Sequence record: PX516787.1
Direction: 5' to 3' (one strand)
Source: a phage
DNA: 35,984 nt
In this document: piece after piece, positions 3,981 through 35,888 of the stretch
How the letters are laid out: every line of letters begins with the position of its first letter
How positions within the stretch are numbered: the stretch's first letter is position 1
Position numbers and translations under genes: made by a program
The notes under the pieces: generated by a model
What the model saw: only the letters and a program-made list of their open reading frames with translations
What the model was told of the DNA's origin: nothing
Databases searched by the model: none

Positions 3981-4505
3981 ATGGCTTACGGTTATTGTGG
4001 AACGGAAGCCAAGTTTGTATCTTGGCTCCAATCTGCTATTCGAAGTGTTTGGTCTAAACACCCAAGCAAACTCGCGCTGATACAATCTCGACGCATTGCA
4101 TTGAAGGTCGGTGACTCAAAGAAACCAATCTTCCACATTCAATGCTACCATTGCAAGAAGTTGTATAAGCTCAAAGAGATTGAAGTAAACCACAAAGTTC
4201 AGGTTGGTGGCCTTCTTAAGTTGGAAGACCTGCACCGCTTTGTGGACAACCTTTTACTGGTTCAGCCAGAAGATTTGGAATTGCTGTGTAAAGATTGTCA
4301 CGGCATTATTACATACATGGAACGATATGGTGTATCACGACGTGATGCAGTCATTGAGAAGAAGTGTATTGCATTTGCCAAATTGTCTGACGAAGAGCAA
4401 ATTGCCAAGTGCAATCTTGCTAAAATAGAGCCAGTTCCTAAAACCAAAATCGGACGCAAGAATGCTGTTCGAGAATACCTGAGAAAGAATCTTAATGTCT
4501 ATTAA
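3981..4505 (+). CDS. HNH endonuclease (zinc-binding)
   Basis: CYHCKK ... EVNHK ... CKDCHG: paired CxxC zinc ligands flanking an H-N-H core. GGAG 5 nt upstream of the ATG. Confidence 0.7.
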   Translation: MAYGYCGTEAKFVSWLQSAIRSVWSKHPSKLALIQSRRIALKVGDSKKPIFHIQCYHCKKLYKLKEIEVNHKVQVGGLLKLEDLHRFVDNLLLVQPEDLELLCKDCHGIITYMERYGVSRRDAVIEKKCIAFAKLSDEEQIAKCNLAKIEPVPKTKIGRKNAVREYLRKNLNVY

Positions 4506-5250
4506 GCTCCTCGATGATGGTACAAGATACACAAAGGCTCACGCACATGATTGGGAAGACCCAGACTGCCGTATCAAAGGGCGCTGTGAACTCTTCATCA
4601 AGATTGACGGAATTCGAGCTATCCGTAATAAATCAGGTAGTGTCTGGAGTCGTAATTCCAAACCCCTACCTCATTTGGACCACTTACAGTTCAGAGATGC
4701 TGAAATATTCCGTAATAGTTGGAATGAGACTTCTAGCATCCTCGGACGTATTGACCCGCCAAGCATTCCTCTAACCCAGGACAATGTGTATGAGTTGAGC
4801 GATGGTGCTGTTGACCCACGCTTGTACATCGGCTGGTGCAAAGACCCAAGCAATGAAAACCTTAAGGCATTGATGGATAAATATCTGGCGCTTGGTCATG
4901 AAGGTATCATTGTCCGTGATGCAAAAGGTAAATGGTGGAAGATTGTACCATATAAATATGCCGATGTGAAGATTACTGGTATGAAAGAAGGTACTGGTGC
5001 TCTTAAAGGTATGTGTGGCTCTATCTCCTCGAACTACGGCAGTGCTGGCTCAATGGTGAAAGATTGTCTGGCAGACCACGGTATTCCAGAATCTAACACA
5101 TTGATTCGTAAGTGGTTGTGGGAACATCGCCACGAGCTAATTGGTTCGATTATGCAAGTTCGATATCGTGAGAAGACAGAAGCTGGTAAGTTCCGGTTCC
5201 CGTCACTCGTTCGTTTACGTGCAGACAAAAGTGAGGAAAGTTTTGATTAA
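4495..5250 (+). CDS. ATP-dependent DNA ligase, compact (251 aa)
   Basis: Nucleotidyltransferase motif I KIDGIR (KxDG); motif IV-like HEGIIVRD; motif V-like GKWWKIVP; C-terminal FRFPSLVRLRADK resembles ligase motif VI in the OB domain. Confidence 0.85.
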   Translation: MSIKLLDDGTRYTKAHAHDWEDPDCRIKGRCELFIKIDGIRAIRNKSGSVWSRNSKPLPHLDHLQFRDAEIFRNSWNETSSILGRIDPPSIPLTQDNVYELSDGAVDPRLYIGWCKDPSNENLKALMDKYLALGHEGIIVRDAKGKWWKIVPYKYADVKITGMKEGTGALKGMCGSISSNYGSAGSMVKDCLADHGIPESNTLIRKWLWEHRHELIGSIMQVRYREKTEAGKFRFPSLVRLRADKSEESFD

Positions 5251-5869
5251 GCGATTAGCTGTTATTCTCAATGGACCTCCTGGCTGCGGTAAAGACACCA
5301 TCGCAAATAAGATTGTTGCTGCCGAGGAACCATACTTTCTCGGTAAGCGCAAGTTCATTAAACACCAGTTTAAGGATGCACTGTATGAGCATACTGCCAA
5401 ACACTTTCAAGTCGATGTGGACAAGTTTATTCACTACGCTTCGGACCGTGACCTCAAAGACTCTATCTCCCTTGCAGGTCTTGGTGGCAGAACACCTCGT
5501 CAGGCTCTTATTCACGTTAGTGAAGATGTGTATAAGCCTCGCTACGGACAAGACTACTTCGGTAAGGTTGAAGCTGCTCGTGTTGAAGAACTCGCGGGGC
5601 GTATGGGTGGCATTATTAATGTCATTTATCCCGATGGCGGTTTTGGTGATGAAGTCGTTGCCATTGAGTCTGCTTATGATTTTGTCCTCATTGTGCGTTT
5701 GCATCGTGATGGTTTTGATTTCACGGGCGATTCTCGCAGATACATCAACCTCCCAGACACACCTACCCGCGTAACAGTGGACGAACATTTAGTTGATGGT
5801 AAAGTGGGTGATTCTGTATTCAAAGTGTTCAACTGGATTGAACGCGTAACTTATCAAGTAGAGAAATAA
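5243..5869 (+). CDS. deoxynucleoside monophosphate kinase (T4 gp1-like P-loop kinase)
   Basis: Walker A NGPPGCGKDT, plus KDAL and R..RQAL segments resembling T4 gp1 dNMP kinase. The listed ATG at 5141 lies 110 nt inside the ligase gene; the in-frame TTG at 5243 with GAGGA 5 nt upstream (or GTG at 5231) is more plausible. Start is uncertain. Confidence 0.6.
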   Translation: MIKRLAVILNGPPGCGKDTIANKIVAAEEPYFLGKRKFIKHQFKDALYEHTAKHFQVDVDKFIHYASDRDLKDSISLAGLGGRTPRQALIHVSEDVYKPRYGQDYFGKVEAARVEELAGRMGGIINVIYPDGGFGDEVVAIESAYDFVLIVRLHRDGFDFTGDSRRYINLPDTPTRVTVDEHLVDGKVGDSVFKVFNWIERVTYQVEK

Positions 5870-17588: not shown

Positions 17589-17764
17589 CTGAAAAGTTCC
17601 CGGAAATAAAATACTTCTTGCACCGTCCTGTAATAGAGGACAGTTCACTCTGTTCTCTTAAAGAGTTACAAGATGGGACCTACTCTATTATGGATTTGTT
17701 GACCTTCCACGCAATACTTGATTTGCGTAACGAATTAAAACCTAAAGAAGAAGACAATGGCTAA
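17130..17764 (+). CDS. tail assembly chaperone, -1 frameshift long form (lambda G-T / P2 E+E' analogue)
   Basis: The -1 frame is open from 17486 to the TAA at 17762-17764 and spans the entire apparent 170-nt gap before the next gene. The heptamer T_TTT_TTC sits at 17486-17492 in the zero frame. Confidence 0.6.
17486..17492 (+). promoter_or_regulatory. -1 programmed ribosomal frameshift slippery heptamer T_TTT_TTC
   Basis: Classic X_XXY_YYZ site; the -1 frame has a stop at 17483-17485 and is then open for 93 codons. Confidence 0.6.
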
Positions 17765-20700
17765 TAACATAAAAGATTTGATGAGAATGTCCGAAGCCGA
17801 ATTGATTGGCTTAGGCGCTCAATATGGTCTGTCGTTCAATCCAGGTATGCGCAAACGAGATATGGCACAGCAACTTGAATCAAGTGCTGCATCTGGTTGG
17901 ATGGAAACAAATTCGCAGCTTATGGAAGAAACCCATACAGAAGATGATGGCATCTCTTATGGCACTTCCGACATGATTTCAGATTCAGCCCACATTGCAC
18001 AGATGATTTCTGGCGCTGGGCTGACTGAAACATTCCATGCTGCAATGAACGGTCCAAGTCACCATGTAGAAGCTATCCATGCCTACATGGAGAAATTAGG
18101 TGTATCCGCCGATGATGTGTGGATGCACATGCCCAAAGCAAACCCGAACAAACCGGAAGGTCATTGGGGAATGCTTAATGCGTACATGCGTGATACGCTG
18201 ACAGGTCATCAAGATATAATGCCAGAGCTTCCTGGACATTATTCAGGCGACATTATGGGCGAGTACTCCACAAACCGTGGAGATATTGCCAAGTCGTTCG
18301 GCTATCTTGCCCACATGTATGTTGACCGTGAACAATACGACAACCCAGACCGCTATGCACGAGATGTTTATCGTGTAGCCAAACGTTTAGAATCAGAATT
18401 GCCGCAAAACTTCCGAGAAGTTGCTGCTGTATCTGCAATGAATGTAGGAAATAAGTCGGGGCCAAAACTTTCATACATGGATTCATTGCCTAAACTTGGC
18501 TCTGAATCAATTGTTAGTGGTATCCAACACCCTCGACAGCCACTTAACGCATCTGGTTTACCACTTGGTTCATTTGGCAGCGGTATTAATGCCGAATACT
18601 CATTATCTGCATCCTTATCTGGCTCGCCAGGCTGGTCTGATGTAAGTAGGACTCTGTACCAAGATGTTTCTAGCGTAGTTAAGTCTGCGGCAAAGGTCTA
18701 TTCTGGTGATTCTGAAAGAGGGATGAGTGCACACCGCACTCAATCTTCTGACAGAGATTTGATTCTTGATTCTGCTTCCCGCTATGCAGACATTATAGAT
18801 GTTCGTTCTGGGTATGAGAATCTTAAGAAAGATATTGGCGACGACCCTCGCTACTCTGGTGCATCCATCCGTGGTGTTCTTGAGAATGCTCACCAATATA
18901 ATGAGGCAGAAGTAAGCAAGACATTTGACCCTGCTGAACGCTTAAGAAATACTGAACCTGCCGAACTAAGTCCTTCAACAGAGTTTATTACGCAACTCGA
19001 TTCACCAACGAGTTGGAACTCTGCTCGCGCTCGTCGTGAGAGTATTGCTATATCTAACTTGGACTCTGCTCCACAACCAGCTCCGAAAGAAGGCCCAATC
19101 CATTATCACAACATGGAACAGGGAACTCAGGAATGGTTGGACTTCCGCAAACAATACGACATTACTGGCTCCACTGTTGGTTCGTTTCTTGGTAACAATG
19201 AATACACCCGACCTTGGGCTGCAATGATTGATAAAATTGGCCTACAACGCGGAAAGGGGCCAAGTGAATTTACTAAAAGAATGTTCGAAGCAGGTCATCG
19301 GACGGAAGAAATTGCTCGTAACCGTGTCGCCAAAGAGTTTGGATTCGATATCGAGCAAGCTGGCGCAATAACAAATGACAATTATCCGTCGTTCATGTAT
19401 TCTCCAGATGGCCTTATCGGTGATGACGCGATTTGGGAACACAAGAATCCTGAAAGGGCTAAAAAGTTTTCTAATCTCTCTGCTGGCGAGCATAAGGACT
19501 ATTTCGACCAAATTCAATTTGGCTTGCTTGTATCTGGCCGTAGTCGTGCACTGTTCTCTCAGACAATCAGAGACAAGACGGTATCTGAGTGGATTGAGAA
19601 AGACGAGGGATGGTACGAGCGCAACAAAGATAAGATTGATTCTACTATTGGGCGTCTCAATGCTGGTCGAAAGTTTGTTGAAGATAATCCAGACTTACCT
19701 AATGATGAATTAATCAAGGGTGCTCGTGCTGCAATGACTGGCGATGGCATCTGGAAGGATGTTAAGCAAAGGTCAACTCGTGGATATTCTGCCGCAGCTG
19801 GAACACCTGATGACCCATTCATAGGCAACCGCACTGATGCTGGAATTGGTGAGGCCACGACTTCTGCCGTAGGCTCTGACAGCACGACTGGCAACGACTC
19901 GATGGCAGTATCTGTCAAGAAAGGTATTCTTGCTGCACAGGAAGAAAACAAACTGCGTGGACAAGATGCTGACTTTGGTGGAAATGATGGTCGTGGTGGC
20001 GGTGGTGGCTTCTGGGATACTTTCGATGCCAGCAGTTATGGTATTAGCGGAGGTGGTTCTGGTGGCGGCGGTCGTGGTGGTTGGAGAGTTGGCGGTAGCT
20101 TCTCAGATGACTTCGGTCGTGCTGGTGGGGCATTGGCTGCTGGCGTAGCTGGTGGCAGCATTGGTTCATTATCCAATGGCGCAATGAATGCCCTCATGAT
20201 GACTCCTTGGGGTCGTGTAGCTGGCATGGCTATTGGTGCTGCCCAGATTGGTAATGAAGCTCTGGAAGGTCTGAACGACTTCTACGGCAATTCTTTGGAT
20301 GCTGGTGTTAATAATCCTAACGAATATTCTTCCATGACTCAGGGCATGGAAATGTTGGGACTTAACTCACAACAAGCCAATCGACTCAATCAAACCACAC
20401 ATAGTGCCTATAACACCCTCCTAAATGGCGACCCCAGCGGCGCTGTGAACATCGTTCAGGGAACCCGTGGCCTTATCACAATTGGCGACATTCGTGCGGC
20501 ACAGGGCGACCCTGTGGCCCTAGCGCGGATAATGCGTGAGCGTGGTCAGGAACGGGGTTGGAGTCAGGCCCGTATTGCTGGTGCAATGCAGATGGCTGGT
20601 CTGGACGGTATGGCTCGTGCCTATGACCGCACAGAATACAGCATGGGCGAGGCTGAGGCGAACGTTAAGCGCGGAGCCGACTCAAACTATGCCGAAGGCG

Positions 20701-21428
20701 TTGCACAACTAGGAATCGCGCAGACGGAGCGTGCTGGTGTACTGCCTGGATACGCTGTTCCGCAAGCTGCAATCTCATACGGCAGCACCTTTATTGAGGC
20801 AGGTGGCGATGCCGCTAGAACGATGCGTGTGGCCTCCAACGGTACAGCCGATGCAGCACGTAATGTTTATGACTTTATCGCAGGAGAAGAGTCAGGGAAC
20901 CGTGATTTTAACGCAGATGGTTCGGTAGTTACATCGCCAACTGGTGCTAAAGGTCGTATGCAGGTTCTTGATTCAACTTCTCGTGACCCTGGCTTTGGTG
21001 TTCGTCCTGCCAAAGATAACTCACTTGAAGAACGTGCCCGTGTTGGTCGTGACTATTACGATGCAATGCTTAAGCGATATAATGGTGACGCTGAGAAGGC
21101 TATGGCGGCGTACACAGATGGTGCCGGAACTGTTGATGATGCTATCAACAAACATGGAACCGACTGGCTGAACGCTGTTCCACTACAGGCACAGAACCGT
21201 GTCAAGAAGTACCGCGAATGGGCTTCTCAGGGAGATTCTATTGCAGAAGGTGCAACTGGATTCACCAGAAACGGACTGTCCTATGGTCAGACACAGCCCA
21301 CCATAGTTAACGTTGAAGTCAAAGCTACCGTGAACAACAAACAAGCGTCTGCAACCGTGTCAACTCCGAACGGTCAAACTGTTACCCAAACAATCAACAT
21401 GGGTAATGGTGCAATGGAACGCAGATAA
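17757..21428 (+). CDS. tape-measure-position multidomain protein (1223 aa) with Rho-N-like N-terminus, YqaJ-like nuclease domain, Gly-rich tract and C-terminal lytic transglycosylase domain
   Basis: Lies between the chaperone and baseplate genes. N-terminus DLMRMSEAELIGLGAQYGLSFNPGMRKRDMAQQL resembles the Rho N-terminal helix-hairpin-helix. QGTQEWLDFRKQYDITGS ... SPDGLIGDDAIWEHK (about nt 19100-19470) resembles a YqaJ / lambda-exonuclease PD-(D/E)xK domain. Poly-Gly tract at about 19970-20230. AGEESGNRDF ... GAKGRMQV ... AYTDGAG (about 20860-21180) resembles the SLT lytic transglycosylase motifs. Confidence 0.7.
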   Translation: MANNIKDLMRMSEAELIGLGAQYGLSFNPGMRKRDMAQQLESSAASGWMETNSQLMEETHTEDDGISYGTSDMISDSAHIAQMISGAGLTETFHAAMNGPSHHVEAIHAYMEKLGVSADDVWMHMPKANPNKPEGHWGMLNAYMRDTLTGHQDIMPELPGHYSGDIMGEYSTNRGDIAKSFGYLAHMYVDREQYDNPDRYARDVYRVAKRLESELPQNFREVAAVSAMNVGNKSGPKLSYMDSLPKLGSESIVSGIQHPRQPLNASGLPLGSFGSGINAEYSLSASLSGSPGWSDVSRTLYQDVSSVVKSAAKVYSGDSERGMSAHRTQSSDRDLILDSASRYADIIDVRSGYENLKKDIGDDPRYSGASIRGVLENAHQYNEAEVSKTFDPAERLRNTEPAELSPSTEFITQLDSPTSWNSARARRESIAISNLDSAPQPAPKEGPIHYHNMEQGTQEWLDFRKQYDITGSTVGSFLGNNEYTRPWAAMIDKIGLQRGKGPSEFTKRMFEAGHRTEEIARNRVAKEFGFDIEQAGAITNDNYPSFMYSPDGLIGDDAIWEHKNPERAKKFSNLSAGEHKDYFDQIQFGLLVSGRSRALFSQTIRDKTVSEWIEKDEGWYERNKDKIDSTIGRLNAGRKFVEDNPDLPNDELIKGARAAMTGDGIWKDVKQRSTRGYSAAAGTPDDPFIGNRTDAGIGEATTSAVGSDSTTGNDSMAVSVKKGILAAQEENKLRGQDADFGGNDGRGGGGGFWDTFDASSYGISGGGSGGGGRGGWRVGGSFSDDFGRAGGALAAGVAGGSIGSLSNGAMNALMMTPWGRVAGMAIGAAQIGNEALEGLNDFYGNSLDAGVNNPNEYSSMTQGMEMLGLNSQQANRLNQTTHSAYNTLLNGDPSGAVNIVQGTRGLITIGDIRAAQGDPVALARIMRERGQERGWSQARIAGAMQMAGLDGMARAYDRTEYSMGEAEANVKRGADSNYAEGVAQLGIAQTERAGVLPGYAVPQAAISYGSTFIEAGGDAARTMRVASNGTADAARNVYDFIAGEESGNRDFNADGSVVTSPTGAKGRMQVLDSTSRDPGFGVRPAKDNSLEERARVGRDYYDAMLKRYNGDAEKAMAAYTDGAGTVDDAINKHGTDWLNAVPLQAQNRVKKYREWASQGDSIAEGATGFTRNGLSYGQTQPTIVNVEVKATVNNKQASATVSTPNGQTVTQTINMGNGAMERR

Positions 21429-23863: not shown

Positions 23864-24623
23864 CAACGATGTAAGGTCTGCAACTGTTAATACAGGATAC
23901 CCAGGCCATATTTATAACTTCGATGCTGTAACTCAAACCTGTGAGGTGCAGCTTGCAATCGAAAACCTGTTTACAGGCTACACCAATGCCTACACCTTAG
24001 AGAAGAAGAAGCGGCTCAGAAATGTTCCTGTTCAGTTCATCCAAGGTGGCGGTTGGAGTCTAACACATCCGGTCCCAGATGGCACTCCTTGTTATGTTCA
24101 CTTTGCTCAGCGCGGGATTGAACATTGGTTGGCAGAGAATAAAGACTCTGCTGGCATGATTGGTGGAAGACCTGCCCCAGCATTCAGTCAGTTGTTCTCC
24201 CACAACTCTGCTGTGTGTATTATTGGGATACAACCAATTCCAGGTGCAATACCAGGATTTAATGCAGGAGTTACTGAACTCCGAAACGCAAGTCGCGACC
24301 AACGTCTGACTCTTCATGGTGACGGAAAGGTAGAACTTATTACTGGTGCTGCAAAGATTACAATCACGAAAGATTCGGAGATAGTAATTGAAGCGACAGA
24401 AAAAGCGTCTGTTATCTCGCCGCAAATCCTTTTGGATGGCGACACCACAGTTACAAAATCGCTCACCGTTCTCGGAGGAATGTCAGTGTCAGGTGGCAGT
24501 GGTGGAACAATGTCAATTACAGGCGATATGGTTCAACAGGGTACGTTCACCATTAACGGAGTCACGGTTAACGAACACACCCACACTAACCCAGAAGGCG
24601 GCGATGTAGGGCCGATGAAATAA
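23832..24623 (+). CDS. baseplate spike / assembly protein V-like
   Basis: C-terminal GDMVQQGTFTINGVTVNEHTHTNPEGGDVGP resembles the gpV / spike C-terminal region with a His-x-His motif. Start is uncertain (listed ATG overlaps the previous gene by 32 nt). Confidence 0.6.
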   Translation: MRVYLNVASHNNDVRSATVNTGYPGHIYNFDAVTQTCEVQLAIENLFTGYTNAYTLEKKKRLRNVPVQFIQGGGWSLTHPVPDGTPCYVHFAQRGIEHWLAENKDSAGMIGGRPAPAFSQLFSHNSAVCIIGIQPIPGAIPGFNAGVTELRNASRDQRLTLHGDGKVELITGAAKITITKDSEIVIEATEKASVISPQILLDGDTTVTKSLTVLGGMSVSGGSGGTMSITGDMVQQGTFTINGVTVNEHTHTNPEGGDVGPMK

Positions 24624-31595: not shown

Positions 31596-32150
31596 ATGTT
31601 ATCATTCAAAGTCCTTGCACTTCTGACAGCTTTAGTTCACATCAACGCCCCAGCTTCGGTTGGGGCAGTGAATTCTGCTATTACAGATTTTGCAAGTCAC
31701 TCTTATTTAAATGGAAGTCTGAAACTATCTTCTTCACAACGCAAAGAGCTAGAATGCTACACTAAAGTTATCTGGTATGAAGCTCGCGGAGAAGACAAAC
31801 ATGGAAAGATTCTGGTAGCTAATGTCGTCCGTAATAGAACTAAGTTCGGGAAGCCATTCGCTAACACCGTTTGTGATGTTGTCTATCAACGCAACCAATT
31901 TGCATGGACACGAGAAGCAAAGAAGAAGAATGCTCAATGGAAGCATGTAGCAAAGGTTAATTATGCCACAGAACAACAACAAGTTCTGGACACTATTAAC
32001 GTTGCAATCTCTTTTGTATTATTTAATCAACCCTCTGTCACCAAAGCAACCCACTTTTGTACAGCATCGGAGAAGTGCAACTTCAAGAATGTTAAAGGTT
32101 TGGGACGTTATGGTGGCCATAAATTCTATGAGTATCTAGGAAATCTGTAA
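31596..32150 (+). CDS. endolysin, SleB-type cell wall hydrolase with N-terminal signal peptide / signal-anchor
   Basis: N-terminus [24 protein letters not shown] looks like a signal peptide; [22 protein letters not shown] ... [11 protein letters not shown] matches the SleB (Hydrolase_2) core. AAGGA 5 nt upstream of the ATG. Confidence 0.8.
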
Positions 32151-33250
32151 TGGCTTACACTACCTTTTCACAAACCAAGAATAACCAACTATTAGAGCCA
32201 ATGTTCTTTGGTCAGAACGTTAACGTTGCTCGATATGACCAACAGAAGTACAGCATCTTCGAGAAGTTAATCGAGAAGCAGTTATCTTTCTTTTGGCGAC
32301 CTGAGGAGGTTGATGTTAGCCAGGACCGAATTGACTATGCTGGTCTGCCTGAATGCGAGAAGCACATCTTCACAAGCAATTTACGATACCAAATCCTGCT
32401 TGATTCCATTCAGGGACGTGGACCAACTACAGTTTTGCTGCCAATTGTGAGCATTCCTGAGCTGGAAACTTGGATTGAAACTTGGTCATTCTCAGAGACA
32501 ATTCACTCTCGTTCTTACACGCATATTATTCGTAATATCGTGACAGACCCTAGCGTAATTTTCGATGAAATTGTGGAGAATGAGCACATCAAAATGCGTG
32601 CAATCGGCATCTCCCAATATTATGACGAGCTTCAACATCTGACTTCCATGTGGCATCTGCATGAAGATAAAGTTTCTCTTCGTGAGCTTAAGAAGAAGCT
32701 ATATTTATGCCTCATGTCCATCAATGCACTGGAAGCAATCCGCTTCTATGTTAGCTTTGCTTGCTCATTTGCCTTCGCTGAACGTAAGTTAATGGAAGGA
32801 AATGCCAAGATTATTCGCTTAATTGCTCGTGATGAAGCACTCCATTTGACCGGAACTCAACACATGCTGAACCTTCTTGCAAGCGGTGTTGATGACCCAG
32901 AAATGGCAGAAATTGCTAAAGAATGCCGTCAAGAATGCCAACTCATGTTCGAAAATGTGGCCCAACAAGAGAAGGATTGGGCTGATTATTTGTTCAAAGA
33001 TGGCTCAATGATTGGCTTAAACAAGCAAATTCTATGCGGATATGTGGAATATATCACGAATATTCGTATGCAAGCAGTTGGATTGGATGCTCCATTCAAA
33101 GGTGCTACTAACCCGATTCCTTGGATTAACGCATGGTTGAATTCGGATGCTGTACAAGTTGCTCCACAGGAAACGGAGATTAGTTCGTACCTTGTCGGGC
33201 AGATTGACTCCGAAGTGGATACCAATGCCCTGGGCGGATTTGAGCTGTAA
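32150..33250 (+). CDS. nrdB: ribonucleotide reductase class Ia beta subunit
   Basis: Full-length (366 aa), with the di-iron ligand regions ([39 protein letters not shown]). From memory it is near-collinear with enterobacterial NrdB, apart from an apparent internal deletion of about 10 aa near [13 protein letters not shown]. Confidence 0.95.
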
Positions 33251-33398
33251 CGATTATATGTGAGAAGAGATTCGATGCGTTAGCGTCGTTTCTCTTTGAG
33301 CTAGGATAAAACAAGTAAATTAAATATCTATTTATTCCCAATATTGCTACAATATTAAGAGTAATATTAGGAATGCGTAAAGTTAAAACCAAATGATA

Positions 33399-33471
33399 CA
33401 TGGTCGGTCAACTGTACCTGGATAGAAATTCGTTCATGGTCGGTCAGCTGTATCTAGACGAAATTTGTTCG
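33399..33471 (+). repeat. tandem direct repeat, two copies of about 36 nt (CATGGTCGGTCARCTGTAYCT...)
   Basis: Copy 1 at 33399-33434 and copy 2 at 33435-33471, roughly 80% identical, read directly from the sequence. Confidence 0.7.
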
Positions 33472-33493
33472 AATGGAAAACCGACTATTAATA

Positions 33494-33518
33494 TTTTTTT
33501 TTTATAATTTTTTTTTTT
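33494..33518 (+). repeat. two homopolymeric T tracts (10 and 11 T) separated by ATAA
   Basis: T10 at 33494-33503 and T11 at 33508-33518, within an AT-rich segment flanked by AATATT palindromes. Confidence 0.8.
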
Positions 33519-33544
33519 AATTTAAATATTGCTACAGAATTAAT

Positions 33545-33607
33545 GAGACTAGAATTCGTAACAAGCTACGAGACTAGAATTGTTTCAATATTAACGAGAC
33601 TAGAATT
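33545..33607 (+). repeat. three phased direct repeats GAGACTAGAATT (iteron-like or tandem promoter-like array)
   Basis: Exact 12-mers at 33545-33556, 33570-33581 and 33596-33607, spaced 25 and 26 bp apart, each followed by a CAATATT-type element. Confidence 0.8.
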
Positions 33608-33837
33608 GTGGCAATATTATAATTTTTATTTTTGGGCCAACGGGGAGGGGAAGCCCAACGTCCTATCGGACTTAAATACGGTCCCTACTCCAACTTTTTC
33701 CTACAGCCTATCGGCTTTCAAACAACACCAAGTTAGGCGCTTCGCTTATGGGTCAAGGTCAAAGTCTCCGTGCTGTTGTAACAATGGCACAGGTTTGTGA
33801 TATTAGTTGGAAGTGAATTGTGTAATGGCTACGCTAT

Positions 33838-35824: not shown

Positions 35825-35888
35825 CAACTAAGCGCCAAGGATGGCATTAGTTGCATGTGAATCTAATAACCAATTTGGAGACTTTATA

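Follow-up and report, generated by a model that had tools for sequence, protein, structure and literature searches.

What can a phage gain from a gene for the beta subunit of a ribonucleotide reductase (RNR) when no gene for the alpha subunit is seen beside it, and for how long has it carried that gene? The question is raised by nrdB in a stretch of E. coli phage DNA of 35,984 nucleotides (sequence record PX516787.1; the window, in what follows, is this whole stretch), which belongs to a Carltongylesvirus (Chaseviridae) genome and covers about 36 kb of its 52-54 kb. The best explanation that we can offer, and which we hold as a whole to be probable, is that NrdB was acquired once and long ago from a gammaproteobacterial source closest to the Enterobacterales, is by now an old gene of the genus, and would form an active diiron-tyrosyl beta2 that docks on the NrdA of the host, giving a hybrid alpha2(host)-beta2(phage) enzyme. 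This explanation rests on sequence comparison and on analogy with known systems.

Identity of the gene product

Two features carry the argument:

32150-33250, plus strand: nrdB, class Ia RNR beta subunit, 366 amino acids (open reading frame, PF00268, alignment with E. coli NrdB)
33146-33247, plus strand: C-terminal tail, equivalent to E. coli D342-L375, the main NrdA-binding and radical-transfer segment (alignment)

The product of this open reading frame (ORF) matches the Pfam family PF00268 (Ribonuc_red_sm) with 165.5 bits, above the family cut-off of 33.6 bits, and PHROG 86 with E = 1.1e-150. Residues 1-366 align with residues 1-376 of E. coli R2 from the Protein Data Bank (PDB) in a single continuous stretch (E = 1.4e-199), and a global alignment with the NrdB of E. 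coli K-12, taken from the annotated chromosome, gives 300 identical residues out of 366 (82.0%), the two proteins being collinear and having the same N-terminus. The original prediction, made from the sequence alone, had described a collinear NrdB of the E. coli type with an internal deletion of 10 amino acids, and both parts of this description are borne out by the alignments, in which the sole indel is a 10-residue gap opposite G173-V182.

The iron ligands (D84, E115, H118, E204, E238 and H241) and the radical tyrosine Y122 are identical in all seven sequences of the phage clade, and the radical-transfer residues W48, D237, E350 and Y356 are kept in every phage copy. In 15 bacterial NrdBs 254 columns do not vary, and 231 of these are unchanged across all phage copies. 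Judged from its sequence, the product is a class Ia RNR beta subunit, that is the radical-making small subunit, and an orphan member of this family; a cognate nrdA is not part of the definition of the NrdB family, and its lack only makes the gene an orphan.

Fit of the phage subunit to host NrdA

The 2.6-Å structure of E. coli alpha2beta2 lists 32 beta residues that contact alpha directly (PMC11551348, Tables S9-S10), and 29 of them are identical in the window protein, as compared with 82% over the whole protein. More than half of the direct alpha-beta contacts of the E. coli holoenzyme, 26 of 44, come from the C-terminal tail (PMC11551348), and the tail of the phage NrdB is identical to that of E. 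coli at 26 of 34 positions, including E350, Y356 and the terminal F-x-L. T4-type NrdAB is likewise a phage class Ia enzyme supplying deoxyribonucleoside triphosphates (dNTPs) in lytic growth; in T4-like phages, however, nrdA adjoins nrdB, and the NrdB, which is 54% identical to that of E. coli and works with its own NrdA, keeps only 24 of the 32 contacts and differs at the very C-terminus, which fits its own alpha. An R2 without R1, with its catalytic residues kept and with a C-terminus matching the R1-binding tail of the host, is what marks an orphan R2, and all three are found here.

Since the catalytic residues and most of the alpha contacts are kept and no phage alpha is found (see below), a hybrid with host NrdA would be the best reading of the gene, and the earlier suggestion that an orphan beta subunit would have to pair with host NrdA is in agreement with it. 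What we infer is that such a hybrid forms, that it is active and that the phage benefits from it. The phage beta dimer would make the tyrosyl radical by means of its diiron cofactor and would dock on host NrdA by the conserved C-terminal tail and the core contact surface. In this way the phage would contribute the half of RNR that makes the radical while host expression shuts down, and the hybrid enzyme would sustain or raise dNTP synthesis in infection, together with the thymidylate synthase and dUTPase of the phage.

Some observations weigh against this reading. Two alpha contacts at which all the sampled bacteria agree are changed in every phage copy (N131T and N343A), and the contact residue D368 is N in the window protein; affinity or regulation could therefore differ from those of the E. 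coli enzyme. Moreover, nrdB is the last cistron behind the lysis genes, with no site resembling a phage promoter from about 24.1 kb to nrdB, and expression at late times only, if this is the case, would sit oddly with a supply of DNA precursors.

The same observations could also be accommodated if the phage protein were a non-catalytic or inhibitory beta, which blocks or retunes host NrdA, or if its role were unrelated to ribonucleotide reduction. The lack of a cognate alpha, the late position, the phage-specific changes at N131 and N343 and the loss of a hairpin described in the next section all go in this direction, and a mutant of vaccinia F4 that is predicted to be catalytically inactive is dominant-negative (PMC2900304). 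However, all cofactor and radical-transfer residues of the phage protein are under strong purifying selection, whereas a pure binder would need none of them, and the phage thymidylate synthase and dUTPase point to the production of dNTPs and not to a blockade. We consider an inhibitory or unrelated role improbable.

The trimmed beta-hairpin

The gap of 10 residues removes the only beta-hairpin of NrdB, and its place is taken by a loop:

32660-32677, plus strand: short loop, residues 171-176 (HEDKVS), in place of the hairpin; deletion junction at 32668/32669

In an AlphaFold2 model of an E. coli-type NrdB (P0005) two strands, 174-178 and 181-185, lie at the gap with a local predicted distance difference score (pLDDT) of 80-87, the overall pLDDT of this model being only 63 because of a shallow alignment. 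The model of the phage protein has a helix at 156-170, a six-residue loop and a helix at 177-210. The length of the hairpin is constant in all 15 sampled bacterial NrdBs, and the full hairpin is present in three phages with a host-like NrdB, namely Csa009 (in which nrdA adjoins nrdB), OBP and Survivor. Within the phage clade we found three alleles, lacking 4 residues (GJ1, MLP1 and Yersinia phages; 372 amino acids), 7 residues (FXie-2024a; 369 amino acids) and 10 residues (the window, ST32 and flopper; 366 amino acids). According to these alignments the loss of the hairpin is confined to the orphan-beta clade and was stepwise. Eukaryotic R2 proteins are not known to have the beta-hairpin.

For the 2.6-Å E. 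coli alpha2beta2 no hairpin residue is listed with a direct or a water-bridged contact between alpha and beta (PMC11551348, Tables S9-S12). In the literature we found no described function for the hairpin of E. coli R2. It could be imagined that the trimmed beta frees the hybrid enzyme from feedback by deoxyadenosine triphosphate (dATP), by not forming the inactive alpha4beta4 ring. The RNR of T4 is not known to be switched off by dATP, and the loss of the hairpin is restricted to the orphan-beta clade. The alpha4beta4 interface is also small, about 525 Å2, and single substitutions on the alpha side disrupt it (PMC11447812). However, the key beta residue of this interface, I297, is unchanged across the phage copies together with S295, M296 and N300, and no source that we found places the hairpin in either interface. 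An escape from dATP inhibition was set aside as quite improbable.

Age and origin of nrdB

The original prediction had taken the likeness to enterobacterial NrdB as a sign of recent capture from a host, in which case the gene would have been picked up from E. coli or a close relative and would have diverged little since. The amino-acid identity of 82%, the collinearity and the identical N-terminus are what such a capture would leave, and E. coli K-12 has the highest identity among the sampled bacteria (0.820, as compared with 0.776-0.803). The nucleotide sequence, however, tells otherwise. The phage nrdB is 69-71% identical to the nrdB of each of 5,426 complete E. coli genomes; in a codon alignment with E. 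coli nrdB only 39% of third positions are identical, the same codon is used at only 125 of the 300 identical residues, and the proportion of synonymous differences (pS) is 0.91, past saturation. A comparison of codon usage and GC with the flanking genes had been proposed as a check; the G+C content at third codon positions (GC3) is 0.44 and is in line with the flanking phage genes (0.35-0.47 in 11 other genes of the window), not with E. coli nrdB (0.63). High amino-acid identity is found along with saturated synonymous sites because NrdB is a very conserved protein.

The protein comparisons do not single out a donor. In a search of 5.8 billion sequences the closest bacterial proteins are 75-78% identical (BLASTP, gap included); they come from Proteus, Xenorhabdus, Providencia, Yersinia, Erwinia and Vibrio, none of which stands out. 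Identity to E. coli NrdB is 88-95% for the sampled Enterobacterales, 82% for the phage and 80% for Vibrio, so that the phage protein is more distant from E. coli than any of these Enterobacterales and about as distant as a member of another bacterial order. A phylogeny was calculated by neighbour joining only, with 200 bootstraps, and in this tree the NrdBs of 13 Enterobacterales form a clade with 100% support from which the phage clade, itself supported at 100%, is excluded. It should be said, against the origin that we propose, that the deep branching of the tree is poorly supported (38-39%). At the 26 columns that distinguish Enterobacterales from Vibrio the phage sides with Enterobacterales in 16, with Vibrio in 4 and with neither in 6. 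The donor probably belonged to the enterobacterial lineage or stood close to it, a finer placement not being possible from these sequences, and the hint of an enterobacterial host that had been drawn from the likeness is weakly supported by this split.

The claim of recency did not survive. Saturated synonymous sites, a phage-like GC3, a position outside the Enterobacterales clade, and the presence of the gene in 46 of 46 records of the genus, with a synonymous divergence (dS) of up to 0.77 within it, make a recent capture very improbable.

Distribution, insertion point and selection in the genus

By tblastn, NrdB is found at 90-100% identity in 46 phage records, which are all the Carltongylesvirus records and whose hosts are Escherichia, Shigella and Yersinia; the next match after the genus, at 77%, is in an unrelated jumbo phage. 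The 2.5-kb stretch round nrdB has 93-96% nucleotide identity to the Escherichia phages BSBP01, Ecp_YSF, flopper and others. The sister genera Faunusvirus, Suwonvirus and Loessnervirus have kept the genes for holin, endolysin and RNA polymerase (41-81% amino-acid identity), with no nrdB at the junction of the last two: there the endolysin gene is followed by an intergenic region and then by the RNA polymerase gene. Since nrdB is present in the whole genus and not at this junction in the sister genera, the comparison argues for one insertion event in the ancestor of the genus, which placed nrdB last in the rightmost transcription unit, before the conserved terminator. The position behind the lysis genes had been considered odd, and it turns out to be ordinary once the sister genera are compared.

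The ratio of non-synonymous to synonymous divergence (dN/dS) within the genus is 0.03-0.09, which corresponds to strong purifying selection. Between the ST32-like and GJ1-like clades dS is 0.73-0.77 and dN/dS about 0.07, and between the window and flopper 20% of the synonymous sites of nrdB differ (dS 0.23) with no amino-acid change. As far as these sequences can tell, nrdB is an old, fixed and selected gene of the genus that predates its diversification.

The endolysins of GJ1 and PYps23T are 96% identical to that of the window and the adjoining nrdB only 85%; because of this difference we place a recombination joint at the boundary between endolysin and nrdB, as in the usual phage mosaicism of neighbouring genes. 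In PYps3T and MLP1 the endolysin is 79% and the holin 67% identical to those of the window.

Some further records came up in these searches. PP952070.1, named Staphylococcus phage Pel53 and labelled as a phage of S. hyicus (53.7 kb), is a Carltongylesvirus: it is 88.5% identical over the endolysin, nrdB and RNA polymerase genes, and carries an NrdB of the GJ1 type and the 46-residue ORF discussed below, so that its host label looks doubtful. In the E. coli collection 202 plasmid records carry a stretch annotated as nrdB that matches part of the phage gene at about 72% identity, as in NZ_CP133922.1 (101098-101588), where the match spans 32% of the query. A protein of 494 amino acids from a 58.9-kb contig at NCBI (P0004) was considered as a domain fusion of NrdB and was rejected; it is a bacterial-type NrdB broken up by repeated VSYTHLDVYKRQ segments, which are translated sequencing adapter, and thus an assembly artefact.

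The missing alpha subunit

With the NrdAs of E. coli, of a T4-like phage and of a Cronobacter phage as queries, tblastn gave no match at E <= 1 in the window, in the complete genome of flopper (52,092 bp), whose NrdB is 100% identical to that of the window, or in 50 kb of the 52.3-kb genome of Bp10; as a positive control, the E. coli NrdA query recovered phage NrdAs at 54-76% identity. YfaE gave no match at E <= 1 in the same three sequences. Among the annotated genes of flopper and Bp10 are those for thymidylate synthase, dUTPase, DNA polymerase, primase/helicase and ligase, and none for a large RNR subunit, whatever the class. A remnant or divergent nrdA or yfaE in the phage was rejected on the basis of these searches, and the absence of nrdA, which had been noticed in the window, extends to both relatives.

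The gene has been annotated since the phiEcoM-GJ1 record (EF460875). The last ORF of ST32 and of phiEcoM-GJ1 has been described as an RNR beta subunit (PMC6266442), and a survey of phage RNRs by Dwivedi et al. 2013 found nrdB only in two phages, phiEcoM-GJ1 being one of them (PMC3653736, Table S1). The nrdB gene and its orphan status are therefore already on record, and what is added here are the figures on saturation and amelioration, the single insertion point, the count of contact residues and the stepwise loss of the hairpin.

That the orphan status is an artefact, with nrdA lying in the roughly 16 kb beyond the window or being too divergent to recognise, may come to mind given that the window is only about 36 kb of a 52-54 kb genome, but it is hardly credible and is already contradicted for recognisable NrdA, NrdE, NrdJ and NrdD, given that the complete relatives with an identical NrdB (flopper; Bp10) have neither an NrdA match nor an annotated large subunit, that the independent survey gives phiEcoM-GJ1 as "nrdB" only (PMC3653736, Table S1), and that the sole trace of NrdA is a resemblance over 20 residues (E = 1.9) in the 46-residue ORF.

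Another host-like beta was seen in Pseudomonas phage OBP (L012, NC_016571.1), where nrdB is followed by a yfaE-like ferredoxin gene (3995-5382). Its NrdB is 75% identical to the window protein and 79% to that of E. coli, and the annotation shows no nrdA in the 4 kb to either side of nrdB, so that this beta may be unlinked or orphan.

Gene junction and transcription unit

The surroundings of nrdB comprise the following features:

31596-32150, plus strand: endolysin, Hydrolase_2/SleB-like, with an N-terminal signal-anchor (Pfam PF07486, 58.6 bits)
32138-32152, plus strand: ribosome-binding site AGGAAA (32138-32143), endolysin stop codon TAA (32148-32150) and nrdB start codon ATG (32150-32152) (sequence)
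33262-33298, plus strand: terminator-like hairpin and U-rich tract directly 3' of nrdB (terminator scan, RNA fold)

The first of these genes is annotated as endolysin or SAR endolysin in the relatives. The last A of its TAA is the first base of the nrdB ATG (GTAATGG), and AGGAAA stands 6 nucleotides (TCTGTA) ahead of this ATG. The TAATG overlap is therefore as it had been described, and it is routine in this operon: overlaps of the TAATG or ATGA kind occur at 7 of the 35 gene junctions of the window, including that between the tail-fibre assembly and holin genes, with TAATG also at 24623, 27973 and 31237 and ATGA at three more junctions. In PYps3T and MLP1 a 2-nucleotide spacer is found in place of the overlap between endolysin and nrdB. 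The TAATG junction is the normal style of the operon.

The terminator scan matches at 33273-33288; the hairpin folds with -22.5 kcal/mol (z = -5.2), none of 200 shuffled sequences being as stable, and its sequence is identical in flopper, PYps3T, MLP1, PYps23T and FXie. A sigma-70 scan for a dedicated nrdB promoter stayed at background level, with 9 sites found and 10.8 expected. From the two features annotated as "putative phage promoter" in the GenBank record of phiEcoM-GJ1 we derived the motif ATTAGTTGGAWGWGRA, which has 4 matches in the window where 0.2 are expected, at 1889 (1889-1904), at 24124, at 33802 (33802-33817, an exact match just upstream of the RNA polymerase gene) and at 35846 (35846-35861, just after that gene), and none just upstream of nrdB. 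A repeat search revealed no other promoter-like family. A dedicated nrdB promoter was rejected on the basis of the background level of the sigma-70 scan and of the lack of a nearby ATTAGTTGGAWGWGRA match. Thus nrdB is the terminal cistron of a long rightward unit, and may be read through from all upstream promoters or be expressed at late times only.

In the 633-bp spacer that follows nrdB, promoter-like elements are repeated upstream of the gene for RNA polymerase, numbered ORF1 on the published maps. Between 33299 and 33883 the spacer contains several repeats and long A/T runs (33493-33520): two copies of AATATTGCTACA...TTAA at 33331 and 33516, a 24-nucleotide direct repeat at 33399 and 33435, and three copies of GAGACTAGAATT (33545-33607) with TTGCTA or TTGTTT about 15 nucleotides upstream, an arrangement like that of tandem early promoters. 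In flopper repeat regions are annotated in the equivalent spacer. Elsewhere in the window, a G+C peak of 0.54 (window 0.45) with high GC skew lies at 20001-21000, within an ORF of 1223 amino acids (17757-21428), a long tail protein gene whose relatives are annotated as virion structural protein or putative tail fibre.

A 46-residue protein with an NrdA-like tail

An acidic ORF of 46 amino acids, gp68, is found in flopper (L001, NC_048845.1, 48341-48481, minus strand) and in Bp10 (L004, 45144-45284); by synteny with these two genomes it would lie about 2.2 kb upstream of the start of the window, before the thymidylate synthase gene. Its match to NrdA is anchored at the end and covers 20 residues (E = 1.9): the ORF ends in ...AIVPGAGDNDCSSGACAI-stop (DNDCSSGACAI) and E. 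coli NrdA in ...DLVPSIQDDGCESGACKI-stop (DDGCESGACKI). The cysteine pair of the NrdA tail, C754/C759, passes reducing equivalents on to the active site, the source being thioredoxin or glutaredoxin; NrdA C754S/C759S is active with DTT but is not known to work with thioredoxin.

The ORF is present in 46 Carltongylesvirus records, the same in number and in hosts as for nrdB, at 95.7-100% identity, and across five genomes synonymous codon changes far exceed non-synonymous ones (up to 10:1). Orthologues in syntenic positions have diverged at the N-terminus and keep the same end; they are those of Erwinia phage Faunus (...VVNDCGDACKI), whose endolysin-RNA polymerase junction is without nrdB, and of Aeromonas phage phiA050 (...GDNDCGDGCKI). 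Pantoea phage Survivor carries the module as an extension at the C-terminal end of a CPYC glutaredoxin (L020, 2126-2620). Two metagenomic members of the family (P0127 and P0128) have only the last 12 residues in common, and RNR genes were not seen nearby in the contexts of the metagenomic members. No family annotation was found for the 46-residue protein. Taken together, these proteins look like a small family of thiol-redox tail modules resembling the tail of NrdA.

The co-occurrence with nrdB in 46 of 46 records was considered as a tie between the two genes, and it is weakened by the orthologues in Faunus and phiA050. If the two nevertheless worked together, the orphan beta and the 46-residue protein would be a two-part kit for taking over host NrdA, in which the hairpin-trimmed beta would give the radical and the 46-residue protein would re-reduce or control the active site of alpha in trans. 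The link of the small protein to nrdB is loose at most, which counts against this proposal, and we regard such a kit as unlikely. Directly upstream of the 46-residue ORF the annotation of phiEcoM-GJ1 has an arginine transfer RNA (tRNA-Arg), possibly intron-containing (L018, 2381-2475), with an equivalent in flopper, Bp10 and MLP1 and a different sequence at this place in PYps3T.

Comparison with known systems and implications

The window gene is the same as gp75 of phiEcoM-GJ1 and ORF79 of ST32, its closest counterparts, and occupies the same position, that of the last ORF behind holin and endolysin. The window NrdB is identical to GJ1 gp75 at 93% of amino acids in a global alignment (91.4% by tblastn) and to ST32 ORF79 at 98.9%; the window has the allele lacking 10 residues (366 amino acids) and GJ1 that lacking 4 (372 amino acids), the genes being otherwise the same in kind. 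The likeness to E. coli NrdB (PDB 1RIB, 7AI8 and 6W4X) lies in the collinear sequence, the cofactor and radical-transfer residues and the C-terminal tail, whereas the phage gene is without the hairpin and without an adjacent nrdA or yfaE, and has a phage-like base composition.

A model for how the phage subunit may work is offered by the poxviruses. Most of the chordopoxviruses have a gene for R2 and none for R1; F4, the R2 of vaccinia, enters into hybrid complexes with cellular R1 by way of its C-terminal residues and is needed for efficient replication (PMC2900304). A viral small subunit that resembles that of the host and is paired with host R1 is the arrangement that we would propose, by analogy, for the phage gene. 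The poxvirus system, however, is eukaryotic, and its hybrid complex and phenotype have been shown by experiment, whereas the phage case is read from sequence; besides, the rationale for poxviruses, in which host R2 is limited by the cell cycle, is not directly transferable to bacteria.

The case of nrdB also indicates that a host-like sequence of a very slowly evolving protein is not evidence for a recent transfer, an identity of 82% being found here alongside saturated synonymous sites. The stepwise loss of the hairpin is a natural experiment on an element of E. coli R2 whose function we did not find described. The locus raises the question whether a phage could run host NrdA by means of a radical subunit of its own, as poxviruses do with host R1. 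If this is true, beta would be the subunit worth carrying, and may be the labile or rate-limiting part of the enzyme after host expression stops, which would bear on the dNTP supply of mid-sized lytic phages and on how sensitive these are to hydroxyurea or to defences that deplete dNTPs.

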